From an uncultured Bacteroidota bacterium (lineage in GTDB: Bacteria > Bacteroidota > Bacteroidia > Bacteroidales > WCHB1-69): a stretch of DNA of 57,327 nt. The stretch is taken from the NCBI GenBank assembly GCA_902797625.1, contig CADBTU010000101.1:1-57327 (forward strand). Reading direction: 5' to 3'. The notes below the pieces were generated by a model. That model saw nothing but the letters and a program-made list of their open reading frames with translations. It ran no database searches and was not told the origin of the DNA. This document shows, in pieces, positions 37,249-55,692 of this stretch; position 1 is the stretch's first letter, and the number at the start of each line of letters is the position of its first letter. The position numbers and the translations under genes were made by a program.

Positions 37249-38355
37249 TTAAGATAGTTTTACAATTTCAGAATAGATTAAATCTATAGCATCGGGTTTG
37301 GCGAATTTTTTTATATTTTCAGATAGGATAGACATCAGACTATTGTTATTAGCAAGTTTCAAAAGTTCAGGAATAAGTTTTTCTGGTGCATCTTTATCGT
37401 TTATTAGTAGGGCAGCGTCTTTAGAAGACAGAGCCTTGGCGTTGAAAGTTTGGTGATCTTCAGCTGCGAAAGGGAAAGGAACCAAGATAGTGGGTAAACC
37501 TACAATAGCCAATTCAGACAGGGCAATAGCACCAGCGCGAGAGATTATAATATCAGCAATTCCGTAGGCGTCGTTCATATTTTTGATAAAGGGAACAATT
37601 TTTATATTATCGTCTTGTTCATTGAGAAGTTTTTGGTCAATATTAGAATAGAATTGTTCGCCAGTTTGCCATAATAATTGAAGGTCAGCATCTCTAAATA
37701 CTTGTAGATTAGCGGCCAAAGTGTTATTAAGAGTACGAGCGCCTAAACTACCACCAATAACTAAAACTGTTTTCTTTTCAGGAGATAAGCCGAAGAACTT
37801 GTAAGAGTTTTCAGATTTTCGTTGCAGTTGTAGAATTTCAGAGCGAATAGGATTACCAGTTTTAACTATTTTTTCTTTAGGGAAATATTTTTCCAAGCCA
37901 TCGTAGGCAACGCAAATAACATCAGCATCTTTACAGAGCATTTTATTAGTTACTCCAGGGTAGGAGTTTTGTTCTTGCAGCATAGTAGGAATTTTCAGTT
38001 GAGTGGCGGCTGTCAGGGCAGGACCGCTAACAAAACCGCCCACACCAATTACGAGGTCAGGGTTAAAATTCCGAATGATATTTTTAGCTTTGCGCATAGC
38101 CTTTAGCATAACAAAGGGAAGTCGAAGGTTGCATAGCATACCATTTAATGAAAATTCTCTACTAATGCCGTAAATTTCAAGTCCTTCGATTTTAAATCCT
38201 GCGTCTGGAATACGTTTCATTTCCATCTTGTTTTCAGCACCGATGAATAGTATTTCAGCTTCAGGATTCTCTTTTTTTATTTTGTTAGCGATGGCAAGTG
38301 CTGGAAAAATATGTCCTCCAGTGCCACCGCCGCTGATTATGTACTTTTTTTTCAT
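37249..38355 (-). CDS. murG: Lipid I GlcNAc transferase MurG
   Basis: GGGTGGHIFPA, EQNS.PG.TN, TGNPIR, GGSLGA, SRAGA, DHQ..NA. Confidence 0.97.
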   Translation of the reverse strand: MKKKYIISGGGTGGHIFPALAIANKIKKENPEAEILFIGAENKMEMKRIPDAGFKIEGLEIYGISREFSLNGMLCNLRLPFVMLKAMRKAKNIIRNFNPDLVIGVGGFVSGPALTAATQLKIPTMLQEQNSYPGVTNKMLCKDADVICVAYDGLEKYFPKEKIVKTGNPIRSEILQLQRKSENSYKFFGLSPEKKTVLVIGGSLGARTLNNTLAANLQVFRDADLQLLWQTGEQFYSNIDQKLLNEQDDNIKIVPFIKNMNDAYGIADIIISRAGAIALSELAIVGLPTILVPFPFAAEDHQTFNAKALSSKDAALLINDKDAPEKLIPELLKLANNNSLMSILSENIKKFAKPDAIDLIYSEIVKLS

Positions 38356-52554: not shown

Positions 52555-54480
52555 CTATTCGTCGCTCAAATTGAGCCATTCAGTCTCTTTTTCTTCAATC
52601 TTATTTTTAACAGATTGATATTCTTGATATAATAATCCAGAAGCAATATCGTCAGCATTATTTTCAGGGTCGGCAAGACGAGCTTCTAATGTGTTTAATT
52701 TTTCCTGAAGAATTAAAATCTCATCTTCTATTTTTTTTAGTTTGTTTTTTCTTTTTCTATCTTCAGCGTCGCGTTGTTTTTTCTCTTCCCATTGTTCTTT
52801 ATTAGAATTTTTAATTGTAGTTTGTTTTTTTTCTGCAATATTTCTACCAGAAAGAACGTTAAGAGATTCAATTTTTCTTTGATTAAGAAAGTTATAAACA
52901 TCACCTGAGAAAGGATTTATCTTATGTTCTTTAAATTCATAGACTTTAGAGGTCAATCCTTGCAGGAAATCACGATCATGTGAAACCAAAATCAAGCTTC
53001 CTTCATATTGTAGAAGTGCGTTTTTTAGAACATCTTTTGAGGGCATATCGAGGTGATTTGTAGGCTCATCAAGAATCAGAAGATTAAAAGGAGATAGTAG
53101 AAGTTTAGCAATAGCAAGACGCGCTTTTTCACCGCCCGAAAGAACTTTCACTTTCTTTTCAGTGTCTTCCGTATCAAATAAAAAGCTTCCCAACATAGTT
53201 CTAATCTTAGGTCGAATATCGCCTACAGCGACGTCATCAATAGTTTCAAAGACAGTTTTTTCTGGGTTTAGTAATTGGGCTTGATTTTGGGCGTAGTAGC
53301 CAGACACAACGTTGTGTCCCAATGAAATATAACCATTTTCAGGTATTAGGGAGCCTACAATTGCTTTAACCATCGTTGATTTTCCCTCTCCGTTGCGTCC
53401 CACAAAAGCAACGCGCTCACCTCTTTCTAATCGAAACTCTATATTATTTAGCACGTTGGGTTTAGATTCATACCCCAAAGAGAGCTCTTTAGCTTCAACC
53501 ACAACTAAGCCAGAATGTGGTGCGGGAGGAAATTTAAAAGAGATTGCGGAGTTATCATAATCATCAACTTCAACACGGTCCATCTTTTCGAGCATCTTTA
53601 TTCTACTTTGAACCTGAGCAGATTTTGTAGCTTTATATCTAAATCTTTCAATAAAACGTTCTATACGTGCGATTTCTTTTTGTTGGTTTGCGTATGCAGA
53701 TTGTTGGTTTTCAATACGTTCGAGTCGTTGTTCTACGTATTGAGAATAACTACATTTGTAATCCTGAATACTTCCTAAAGTTATTTCAATAGTTCTGTTT
53801 GTAACTTTGTCTAAGAAAGCTCTGTCGTGAGATACTAAAATAACACATCCGTCGTAAGTTGCCAAATAATCTTCTAACCATTGAATAGATTCAATATCCA
53901 AGTGGTTTGTTGGTTCGTCGAGTAAAATGATTTCTGGTTTTTGAAGAAGGATTTTAGCAAGGCAGACGCGCATTTGCCAACCGTTGCTAAATTCAGACAT
54001 ATTCTTGAAAAATTCATCTCTAAGAAACCCCATACCAAGTAAAACTTTCTCAGTATCAGCCTCTTTTGAACTGCCTCCTAAATTCACGTAATTATCATTC
54101 AAGTCTGATATTTTTTGAGTCAGTTTAGAGTATTCTTCAGAATGATAATCGTCTCTATTAGAGAGTTCGGTGGTTAATTTTGATATTTCAGTTTCAATAC
54201 TATTAAGTTCTTTGAAGGCCGACAAAGCCTCGTCCCAAACAGTAAGTTGTGATGTGCCAGCAAGCTCCTGAGGTAGGTATCCGATACGGTACCCCGAAGT
54301 AATTACCATAGAGCCAGAAGCTGGTTCAAGATCGCGATTTATAATTTTCAACAAAGTTGATTTTCCCGCCCCATTATGCCCTACAAGTCCAATTCTATCT
54401 CTATCTCCGACCGTAAAAGAGACATCTTTAAATAGAAAATCTCCAGTAAAATTGACTGAAAGTTTGTTGATTTGAATCAT
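52555..54480 (-). CDS. ABC-F family ATPase
   Basis: Two NBDs (GHNGAGKST; GRNGEGKST), LLDEPTNHLD twice, inter-NBD linker, C-terminal coiled coil, no TM helices. Confidence 0.95.
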   Translation of the reverse strand: MIQINKLSVNFTGDFLFKDVSFTVGDRDRIGLVGHNGAGKSTLLKIINRDLEPASGSMVITSGYRIGYLPQELAGTSQLTVWDEALSAFKELNSIETEISKLTTELSNRDDYHSEEYSKLTQKISDLNDNYVNLGGSSKEADTEKVLLGMGFLRDEFFKNMSEFSNGWQMRVCLAKILLQKPEIILLDEPTNHLDIESIQWLEDYLATYDGCVILVSHDRAFLDKVTNRTIEITLGSIQDYKCSYSQYVEQRLERIENQQSAYANQQKEIARIERFIERFRYKATKSAQVQSRIKMLEKMDRVEVDDYDNSAISFKFPPAPHSGLVVVEAKELSLGYESKPNVLNNIEFRLERGERVAFVGRNGEGKSTMVKAIVGSLIPENGYISLGHNVVSGYYAQNQAQLLNPEKTVFETIDDVAVGDIRPKIRTMLGSFLFDTEDTEKKVKVLSGGEKARLAIAKLLLSPFNLLILDEPTNHLDMPSKDVLKNALLQYEGSLILVSHDRDFLQGLTSKVYEFKEHKINPFSGDVYNFLNQRKIESLNVLSGRNIAEKKQTTIKNSNKEQWEEKKQRDAEDRKRKNKLKKIEDEILILQEKLNTLEARLADPENNADDIASGLLYQEYQSVKNKIEEKETEWLNLSDE

Positions 54481-54495: not shown

Positions 54496-55692
54496 TTATA
54501 TAGTAGTTTTCATTATATTTATTGGTTTTTCAGATAATTCATCACTTTTAGATATTTTAGCGATATTAAGGAGTATTCCCATAGCGCATCCTGATACAAA
54601 AAGGGATGAACCTCCGCTGCTTATGAATGGTAATGTTTGTCCTGTTGCGGGTAGTAATTCGCAATTCACCCCAATATGTACAAAAGCTTGAGCGGTAAAC
54701 CAAAAACCTATTCCAAAAGCTAAAAGTCTTCCATAAAACCCCTTAGAGTTTTTTGCTATATTCCATGCACGGTAGAAGATGATCAAGTATGAAAATATTA
54801 TCAAAACGCCTACAACTATACCTGTTTCTTCAAACATAGAGGCGAAAGCATAGTCTGTTTCTTTTTCAGGGAGTCTGTTTTTAATAACTCCATTGCCAGG
54901 TCCAGCGGGGTGTAATCCAGAGCGGGCGATGGCGGTTCGCGCCAGAATCATCTGATCTCCATATCCATCTGTATTATCGTTAGTTATGAAATACTCCCAT
55001 CTGTTTATGAATGTTGCTATTCGTCCAATATTAGCTTTTTTGTTTTCGCTCATATTAGCCACAATAATTACAACAATAAGTAGTAAACCAACCACAATTG
55101 AGACCATCTTACACACCTCTTTTAATTTTGTTCCTCCTATAAATAGGATAGCTATTCCTGTTATAAAAAGAATAATTGATGTTGACATGTTAAGCAATGC
55201 TATGCAGAGGCAAAATAGACATAGAACGCCATACATTATCCAAGCTGTTCTATTGTCAAGTTCAAAATCAAAGTCCTCACACATATAGTTTAACGGTCGT
55301 TCTTCTCTCTTCTTTTTCTCATATTTTCTTCCGATGAAGTAAGACATAAACATAATGAGAATAAAACCTATAAGGTAGAAAGTTTGAACATCTCTTCCCA
55401 TAAGAGAGATACCGCGTGTTGTTTGAGAAGTAAGGGTTGTTATCAGCAGAAATCCCGCCACTAATATAAGTACAGGAGAAAATCCGCCAATAAATTTGTA
55501 ATTTATTTGATAGCATATAAACATCCCTATATATGCGAAAAGAAGATGTTTAAGATGTTGTAGTACCACGGTGCCGCGCATACTATAAACCATCAAAATC
55601 GACAATCCTGTTAGAAACAAAACAACTATTGGGATTATCTTATCAGACTTAAAAAATATTTTTCGTGTTGTGATATTATTATCGTTGTCCAT
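54496..55692 (-). CDS. ftsW: FtsW/RodA/SpoVE (SEDS) protein in the ftsW position, divergent
   Basis: GPG.G, LPE..TDYAF...EE.G, QAFVH..V, P.TGQTLPFIS.GGSS; dcw position. N-terminal SEDS motifs are degenerate. Confidence 0.85.
   Translation of the reverse strand: MDNDNNITTRKIFFKSDKIIPIVVLFLTGLSILMVYSMRGTVVLQHLKHLLFAYIGMFICYQINYKFIGGFSPVLILVAGFLLITTLTSQTTRGISLMGRDVQTFYLIGFILIMFMSYFIGRKYEKKKREERPLNYMCEDFDFELDNRTAWIMYGVLCLFCLCIALLNMSTSIILFITGIAILFIGGTKLKEVCKMVSIVVGLLLIVVIIVANMSENKKANIGRIATFINRWEYFITNDNTDGYGDQMILARTAIARSGLHPAGPGNGVIKNRLPEKETDYAFASMFEETGIVVGVLIIFSYLIIFYRAWNIAKNSKGFYGRLLAFGIGFWFTAQAFVHIGVNCELLPATGQTLPFISSGGSSLFVSGCAMGILLNIAKISKSDELSEKPINIMKTTI

Follow-up and report, generated by a model that had tools for sequence, protein, structure and literature searches.

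A 57,327-nt contig (CADBTU010000101.1) from an uncultured Bacteroidales bacterium of the lineage WCHB1-69 (assembly GCA_902797625.1; 1.81 Mb in 139 contigs, 99.6% complete, 35% GC) carries on its minus strand four consecutive genes, namely mraY, a stand-alone open reading frame (ORF) for the C-terminal domain of MurD, a variant ftsW, and an ABC-F ATPase gene (Table 1). The whole contig, C101 of the assembly, was analyzed and is referred to here as the window. Three nucleotides separate the stop of the MurD C-domain ORF from the start of ftsW, after which the division and cell wall (dcw) cluster stops. FtsW proteins are regarded as SEDS glycosyltransferases that, paired with the class B penicillin-binding protein (PBP) FtsI, polymerize lipid II at the septum. 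The window protein matched PF01098 over residues 23-381 (147.3 bits, cut-off 26.4) and, among NCBIfam models, scored 181 bits as FtsW versus 136 as RodA, both under the equivalog cut-offs. The cut-off of the FtsW equivalog TIGR02614 (337.5 bits; window protein 181.2) is strict for the whole order, since a canonical Bacteroidales FtsW (L056, 283.6 bits) fails it as well. We found two SEDS genes in the genome, the window ftsW and a rodA located beside the PBP2 gene on contig C41, and the window gene is thus the sole FtsW-type gene of the genome, in dcw position. A preliminary description of this DNA, made from the sequence alone, had called for a count of SEDS and class B PBP genes; for the latter, a PF00905 search returned PBP2 and a class A PBP as its only matches, the single GT51 class A PBP being encoded on contig C71. 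A lone FtsW-type gene in the dcw position does not fit the paralogous regulatory module which that description had entertained.

To locate the altered residues, the window protein was aligned with E. coli FtsW, 27 same-genus rows, 11 canonical Bacteroidales FtsW, and the RodA of the same genome, and invariance was compared between 33 variant and 56 canonical rows. In extracellular loop (ECL) 2, R93 corresponds to E. coli R137 and is kept, while G94 replaces W138; in transmembrane helix (TM) 4, Q103 (E. coli Q147) is kept, while Y106 replaces E150 and G109 replaces K153 (R93-G109 at 55416-55366). G94, Y106, and G109 are fixed in 27/27 same-genus rows; at the first of these positions 10/11 outgroup rows carry W, and all 11 carry D or E at the second and K at the third. 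Residues 1-151 of the window protein hold no Trp at all, and hence no displaced equivalent. Across the clade, the ECL2 Trp is replaced by G, S, T, or A, and the E150/K153 pair by Y and G, A, or T. The ECL1 segment between S37 and H46 is reduced to 7-9 residues in 33/33 variant rows versus 16-21 in 55/56 canonical rows, and the position of E. coli R84 is taken by Q45. The missing SEDS RW and QPSExxK residues and the shortened loop after VYS, both remarked on in the preliminary description, were therefore borne out, as was a charged insert. The insert belongs to the cytoplasmic TM4-TM5 loop and reaches 28-29 residues in only 4/33 variant rows (the window protein, its two closest relatives L034 and L035, and the duplicate L077), the loop having 14-18 residues in the other 29.

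Losses specific to the clade are the ECL2 Trp, the TM4 pair, and the ECL1 residues including the R84 position, whereas the positions of E. coli P196, L198, G199, Y242, and Y379 differ already in canonical Bacteroidales FtsW. Further clade-fixed differences were found in TM2 (Y61 for H), TM4 (F105, I108), ECL4, TM9 (H339, I340, N343), and TM10. In contrast, D280, the putative catalytic Asp at the start of the third amphipathic helix of ECL4 (E. coli D297, B. subtilis RodA D280), is invariant in 27/27 same-genus rows, in 11/11 outgroup rows, and in all complete rows of the wider sets. R93, Q103, R224, R231, D280, E288, and E289 are invariant across all 33 variant and 56 canonical rows, as are P348, T350 to P355, S358, and G360 in ECL5; for R224 and R231, the exact register differs between two alignments. 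The equivalents of E. coli G371, G380, and G381 are likewise kept (G351, G360, G361). An AlphaFold2 (AF2) model of the window protein (mean predicted local distance difference test score, pLDDT, 85.8; predicted TM-score, pTM, 0.86) shows the whole ten-helix, GT-C type SEDS fold, with Foldseek TM-scores of 0.69-0.82 to the FtsW and RodA structures 8p1u_A, 8bh1_A, 8tj3_B, and 6pl6_A; seven SEDS chains were matched at E <= 2e-6, with target-normalized TM-scores of 0.77-0.82. The phmmer alignment to solved FtsW and RodA chains was confined to residues 165-378, which marks the N-terminal half as the divergent part. The canonical C-terminal half, catalytic Asp, and intact ORF of the preliminary description were likewise confirmed. 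Judged from these alignments, the proposed acceptor side of the enzyme appears rebuilt, whereas the donor side and the catalytic Asp appear untouched.

Table 1. Features of the ftsW region, given as window positions.
Feature	Position	Strand	Basis
ftsW, variant SEDS protein, 398 aa	54496..55692	-	intact ORF; PF01098 147 bits
ECL2 and start of TM4, residues 89-109 (SQTTRGISLMGRDVQTFYLIG)	55366..55428	-	alignments
Shortened ECL1, residues 38-45, ~12 residues below canonical	55558..55581	-	alignments
Cytoplasmic TM4-TM5 loop with charged insert, residues 121-149	55246..55332	-	pLDDT ~60
ECL4 arginines R224, R231	55000..55023	-	aligned stretch corresponds to E. coli R243-R246, donor pyrophosphate site
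D280 codon, putative catalytic Asp (E. coli D297)	54853..54855	-	alignment
ECL5 motif, P348 to G361 (PATGQTLPFISSGG)	54610..54651	-	alignment
Stand-alone MurD C-terminal-domain ORF, 185 aa	55696..56253	-	TIGR01087 88.8 bits, positions 287-440 of 441
mraY, 5' end cut by contig end	56294..57327	-	TIGR00445 285 bits
ABC-F ATPase gene directly downstream of ftsW	52555..54480	-	ORF and Pfam match

The variant gene is conserved and under strong constraint. Orthologs with 52-71% identity were detected in 22/24 same-genus genomes of 1.9-3.8 Mb; G024 (94% complete) gave no ortholog, G011 (59% complete) gave a RodA-like match only, and none of the genomes searched had a second, canonical FtsW. Synonymous sites are saturated between the window gene and its nearest relative (pN 0.115), and closer pairs within the clade were used to estimate the ratio of nonsynonymous to synonymous substitution rates (dN/dS). 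In three such pairs, the whole-gene dN/dS was 0.037-0.062 and that of the ECL2/TM4 stretch 0-0.056, with the highest values (0.09-0.17) in the TM4-TM5 loop. When FtsW identity was compared with MraY identity over 71 loci, variant-variant and canonical-canonical pairs behaved alike (FtsW identity 0.795 versus 0.766 in the MraY bin 0.85-0.9, and 0.41 versus 0.43 in the bin 0.65-0.7), whereas variant-canonical pairs were lower at equal MraY identity (0.27-0.29). Low values for mixed pairs next to normal values within each group fit one burst of change in FtsW that would have been followed by normal constraint. Consistent with this, the 31 variant rows of an 84-row tree in which the motif columns were kept formed one group (SH-aLRT support 99; stem length 0.83 changes per site). 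G026 FtsW, the tree neighbor of this group, carries S in place of the Trp but retains E, K, and the long ECL1. Clade members as distant as 33-54% identity still share the catalytic Asp and the pyrophosphate-binding arginines. On these data, the window FtsW is neither a decaying gene nor a paralog.

To place the variant among its relatives, we searched 1.84 billion representatives, which gave 17,560 matches at E <= 0.001, and examined the best 150. The motif region is covered by 139 of these, which are the nearest relatives of the query and no random sample of SEDS proteins. Among them, 80 are canonical, 28 lack the Trp alone, 10 keep the Trp without E/D or K/R, and all three residues are missing from 18 (15 of which, at identities down to 33%, have the Y/F type of the window protein), while the remaining three show other combinations; the Trp is absent in 47/139 overall. 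P0147, P0154, and P0217 represent another SEDS type, with Ser for the Trp and QTIHxxE or QTVQxxE in place of E..K. A profile built on distant variants gathered 80 Bacteroidota loci, of which 12 show the triple loss; these 12 derive from Bacteroidales metagenome-assembled genomes (MAGs) of termite guts, horses, and ruminants. The named records are uncultured Bacteroidales MAGs from the rumen, other ruminant gut sites, and one human gut sample. The changes are fixed in a single monophyletic group of gut Bacteroidales, with members from the rumen, horses, termites, and humans. Contig C23 of G008 (contamination of this genome 7%) carries a second murE-mraY-murDc-ftsW set (L052), which belongs to a deeper variant lineage; L052 is nearly identical to L110 in the tree, and the contig is probably a contaminant. 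A literature search on FtsW, SEDS, and Bacteroidales returned no mention of Bacteroidales among the matches listed.

Each of the lost residues has a counterpart in published work on E. coli FtsW. W138A is reported to be strongly dominant-negative and non-complementing and to make no septal peptidoglycan (PG), although the mutant protein still localizes and retains binding to both FtsI and substrate (Li et al. 2022, PMC8765783). The same source cites K153A as an earlier dominant-negative allele and reports dominant-negative effects for R137H, Q147E/K, variants of R243 and R246, D297A, G371S, Y379A, G380A, and variants of G381, whereas E150A complements (its Table 2). In the simulations described in a 2026 preprint (10.64898/2026.02.13.705525), W138 and Y379 clamp the acceptor, over which ECL1 closes; the acceptor site further includes R84 and R145, the donor site includes R243 and R246, and R137 serves as an activation switch. 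The charged pair nonetheless varies in nature. Flavobacterium FtsW lacked the E150/K153 equivalents in 80/80 loci, including those of type strains and a complete genome, E150 being replaced by T or A and K153 by S, A, F, T, or L (QTSTxx(S/A/F/T/L)), and differs from the window protein in keeping the ECL2 Trp. Since Flavobacterium lacks the pair and E150A is reported to complement in E. coli, the E..K pair is not a general requirement of FtsW, and the premises of the preliminary description, a required Trp and an ExxK pair forming a conserved salt bridge, were overstated. Accordingly, we do not treat the E..K pair as defining SEDS membership, and the ECL2 Trp is no universal feature either. The unusual point of the window clade is the combination of these losses with the ECL1 deletion and a parallel change in FtsI.

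FtsI of the clade is known from relatives of the window genome. Where 6 kb of upstream flank was available, in 11 same-clade loci, all show the gene order ftsI-like (751-777 aa), murE, mraY, the MurD C-domain ORF (185 aa), and ftsW, followed in all 11 by an ORF of 641-649 aa that was identified as ABC-F in L035, the one locus scanned. The window assembly itself yielded no ftsI, no murE, and none of the first 91 codons of mraY in tblastn searches with a relative's genes, coverage by the relative's MraY being limited to residues 92-420. A true absence of FtsI was considered and rejected; because the contig ends inside mraY and the relatives carry both ftsI and murE, we read the missing genes as an assembly gap. 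The catalytic motifs SxxK, SxN, and KTG, whose integrity the preliminary description had proposed to check, are intact in 15/15 clade genomes (10 same-genus and five deeper). All 15 also have an insert of 15-18 residues directly after the FtsI membrane helix and more inserts along the N-terminal non-catalytic region, whereas four canonical FtsI proteins, and likewise the N-terminal part of G026 FtsI, have none of this kind. The FtsI and FtsW changes represent a single evolutionary event and hence stand as one co-occurrence rather than as a statistical test. With both proteins remodeled across the clade, the non-standard septal wall synthesis put forward in the preliminary description gains support. 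A Trp in the FtsI insert was considered as a clamp acting in trans, but canonical FtsI likewise carries a Trp in that alignment column, and the idea was dropped.

Relative to the FtsW proteins of E. coli and P. aeruginosa (8bh1, 8p1u), the window protein has the same ten-helix SEDS fold, ECL4 catalytic Asp, ECL2 Arg and Gln, ECL4 arginines, ECL5 PxxGxxLP...S-x-GG motif, dcw position, and (in relatives) paired class B PBP; it differs in lacking the ECL2 Trp and the TM4 E..K, in an ECL1 about 12 residues shorter, and in a cluster that ends after ftsW. With canonical Bacteroidales FtsW (L056 of G027, L053 of G029), it shares the order, the gene position, S170, T350, and other Bacteroidota-specific residues, and a C-terminal-only MurD ORF precedes several of these canonical genes as well. 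The canonical proteins are only 27-37% identical to the window protein, however, and keep RW...Q(T/P)S(D/E)xxK and an ECL1 of 16-21 residues. RodA proteins (T. thermophilus 6bar, E. coli 8tj3_B, and the genome's own copy on C41) belong to the same family and fold, but the genome's own RodA is the elongation paralog encoded beside PBP2 and keeps W, E, and K. This RodA (G000:C41:13438-14712, minus strand) has GAKSW where SEDS proteins usually have Arg-Trp, with Ser at the position of E. coli FtsW R137.

The ORF preceding ftsW has a history of its own. Its AF2 model superimposes on the MurD C-domain (rmsd 2.6 over 145 columns; first 50 residues of low confidence), and its 33% identity to a dcw MurD C-domain, versus 19.5% to the genome's own full-length MurD, indicates descent from dcw murD. 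The ORF of the window is 87% identical to that of L035, although the FtsW of that relative is only 70% identical, and it appears to persist under selection rather than as a random remnant. ORFs of this kind (174-195 aa) were found upstream of canonical FtsW in 13/80 loci as well as in G027 and G029, and upstream of variant FtsW in 8/12 variant loci (the other four not being readable); the two Flavobacterium-labeled loci with enough flank (L122, L142) have a full-length murD there. The G027 copy retains the substrate-binding MurD motifs GGxDKGNDY and LLSPACASFD, which are degenerate in the variant clade (TNIDNPE, VLYTPGVHG). Co-evolution of the variant FtsW with the MurD fragment, as surmised in the preliminary description, is therefore not upheld.

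What the fragment tracks is the route by which D-Glu enters the PG precursor. A full-length MurD is encoded on contig C68 (19234-20646, minus strand; TIGR01087 332.6 bits), with Glu and Arg at the positions of E. coli D182 and K348 and Ile at that of K319, where dcw-type MurDs have D, K, and K. These first two positions set the L-Glu specificity of MurD2 according to PMC8788868, to whose residue numbering an offset of +1 was applied relative to the translation used here. Glutamate racemase, murI (TIGR00067), was detected in 0/25 same-genus genomes including that of the window, and over the cut-off in 9/16 outgroup genomes. Via the conserved upstream gene of six other families, we found a MurL-like epimerase homolog on contig C36 (10254-11567, plus strand; NF041275 234.6 bits, positions 7-420 of 447, E 1.5e-69), whose score is under the Xanthomonadales equivalog cut-off of 700 and whose epimerase role is predicted. 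The homolog is present in the window genome and 22/24 same-genus genomes, the two misses being 59% and 63% complete, and also in G026, G027, G029, G033, G035, and G037. The MurL homolog and murI were mutually exclusive over 41 Bacteroidales genomes (29 MurL, nine murI, none with both), and the second MurD type occurs in the same genomes as the MurL homolog. Truncation of the dcw murD was confined to MurL-positive genomes, three of which (G033, G035, G037) still have it full-length. This distribution of murI, MurL, and MurD2 offers an explanation for the truncation of dcw murD; in our reading, a MurD2/MurL-type route may have made the dcw D-Glu ligase redundant and left the C-domain ORF behind. 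The fragment thus follows the putative MurD2/MurL bypass without murI, not the FtsW motifs.

As in the MurD2/MurL route of Xanthomonas oryzae, the window genome lacks murI, encodes a MurD-type ligase with E and R where L-Glu specificity is set, and has a homolog of the MurL epimerase. Unlike in that route, murD2 (C68) and murL (C36) are unlinked and a remnant of the old murD is conserved. Six other families have murL immediately before the MurD2-type ligase gene, whereas the genes are unlinked in the window genus; an off-cluster MurD beside MurL as in Xanthomonas was accordingly rejected for that genus, where the neighbors are BamA-like and thioredoxin genes. The distribution given in PMC8788868 lists the route for some Gamma- and Alphaproteobacteria and actinobacteria only, and our literature search found no paper combining MurD2 and Bacteroid*. 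The window genome also has one Aminotran_4 gene, on contig C77. In G038, a genome of the same order (2.1 Mb, 98% complete), we found an FtsW-like match over the C-terminal part only; neither murI nor a MurL-like gene was detected, and the best TIGR01087 match (E 7.8e-28) did not reach the MurD cut-off.

We consider it probable that the window gene, the single ftsW of the genome, encodes a working septal polymerase whose acceptor side has been rebuilt and which has co-adapted with FtsI. Under this interpretation, the acceptor side would have been rebuilt in one gut Bacteroidales clade through loss of the ECL2 Trp, the E150/K153 pair, and about 12 ECL1 residues, while the donor side and catalytic core would have been retained; FtsI would have been altered in parallel by juxtamembrane and N-terminal inserts with its catalytic motifs kept, and the pair would still form an active septal synthase with a different acceptor-site architecture. 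The data establish the sequence changes, their conservation, the selection on the gene, and its phylogeny, whereas the activity and the mechanism of compensation are our inference. Retained catalysis is argued because dN/dS is low and the catalytic Asp, R93, Q103, R224, R231, and the ECL5 motif are invariant. Several points weigh against this interpretation. W138, ECL1, and R84, all assigned to acceptor binding by 10.64898/2026.02.13.705525, are altered here; in E. coli, W138A is reported to make no septal PG, and K153A is cited as dominant-negative. All clade members are uncultured MAGs whose FtsW activity is predicted, and the FtsI partner of the window protein is seen in relatives only, the window assembly lacking ftsI and murE. 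The residues regarded as catalytic could also be kept merely for lipid II binding, and the class A PBP could supply glycan strands.

Alternatively, FtsW could be glycosyltransferase-dead and serve as a lipid II-binding scaffold, a recruiter, or an activator of FtsI, with septal glycan made by the one available GT51 class A PBP, but we regard this as unlikely. The Trp needed for septal PG synthesis in E. coli (PMC8765783) is gone along with K153, ECL1, and the R84 position; yet the catalytic Asp and the pyrophosphate-binding arginines are invariant at 33-54% identity, dN/dS is very low within the altered region itself, and 28 other representatives among the 139 nearest lack the Trp with all else kept, so that loss of the Trp has evidently been tolerated repeatedly. 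The inactive SEDS protein of the preliminary description fares no better against a dN/dS of 0.04-0.06 and invariant catalytic residues. It is less likely still that an active FtsW has changed its specificity, toward lipid II with an altered stem peptide or sugar modification or toward another mode of activation by divisome partners. Clustering of the changes on the proposed acceptor side (ECL1, ECL2, TM4), extra fixed changes in ECL4, TM2, TM9, and TM10, the parallel change in FtsI, and the supply of precursor D-Glu by a MurD2/MurL-type route would all suit such a shift, but G027 and G029 share the MurD2/MurL set-up and have a canonical FtsW. The 1.81 Mb genome, the truncated adjacent murD, and the dcw cluster broken after ftsW might suggest a decaying remnant in a shrinking genome, which we consider extremely improbable: the intact ORF, the orthologs in 22/24 same-genus genomes, the low dN/dS, and a normal rate relative to MraY mean that selection and conservation data already refute it. 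A reduced endosymbiont shedding its wall, suggested by the 1.8 Mb and 35% GC, was also rejected because murG, murC, murF, an mpl-like gene, ftsZ, RodA-PBP2, and the class A PBP are all present and same-genus genomes measure 1.4-3.8 Mb (the 1.4 Mb one being 59% complete). The murG gene lies in the window itself, about 17 kb from ftsW and outside the dcw remnant (37282-37770, minus strand; 369-aa frame, PF04101 132.9 bits).

In a further reading, which we regard as unlikely, the septal synthase would have been re-wired, such that FtsW has lost its own acceptor elements (Trp clamp, ECL1, and TM4 charge pair) and these are supplied or bypassed by partners. Candidate partners are the FtsI juxtamembrane insert and possibly the conserved, catalytically degenerate MurD C-domain protein encoded immediately before ftsW; in the extreme form of this proposal, FtsW would no longer be a glycan polymerase at all. 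The preliminary description had allowed that equivalent W, E, and K residues might lie nearby, or that the variant might be common in Bacteroidota with normal murD and a single ftsW. The former is contradicted by the Trp-free N-terminal part, while the latter largely describes what we found, namely a variant common in a Bacteroidales clade whose genomes have one ftsW and, away from the dcw cluster, a MurD-type ligase that is predicted to work.

Current models of SEDS polymerases rest on few model organisms and assign the ECL2 Trp, ECL1, and the TM4 Lys to the acceptor site. The window clade, which is abundant in the gut, does without all of these elements, its sole FtsW is under strong purifying selection, and its FtsI has changed in step. 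Motif loss alone is a poor ground for calling SEDS genes inactive, given the missing E..K of Flavobacterium and the third of the nearest representatives that lack the Trp. A MurD2/MurL-type route in place of murI in several Bacteroidales families would in addition extend the known range of that pathway. The clade thus offers a natural experiment on which parts of the acceptor site an FtsW can do without and how their loss can be compensated.

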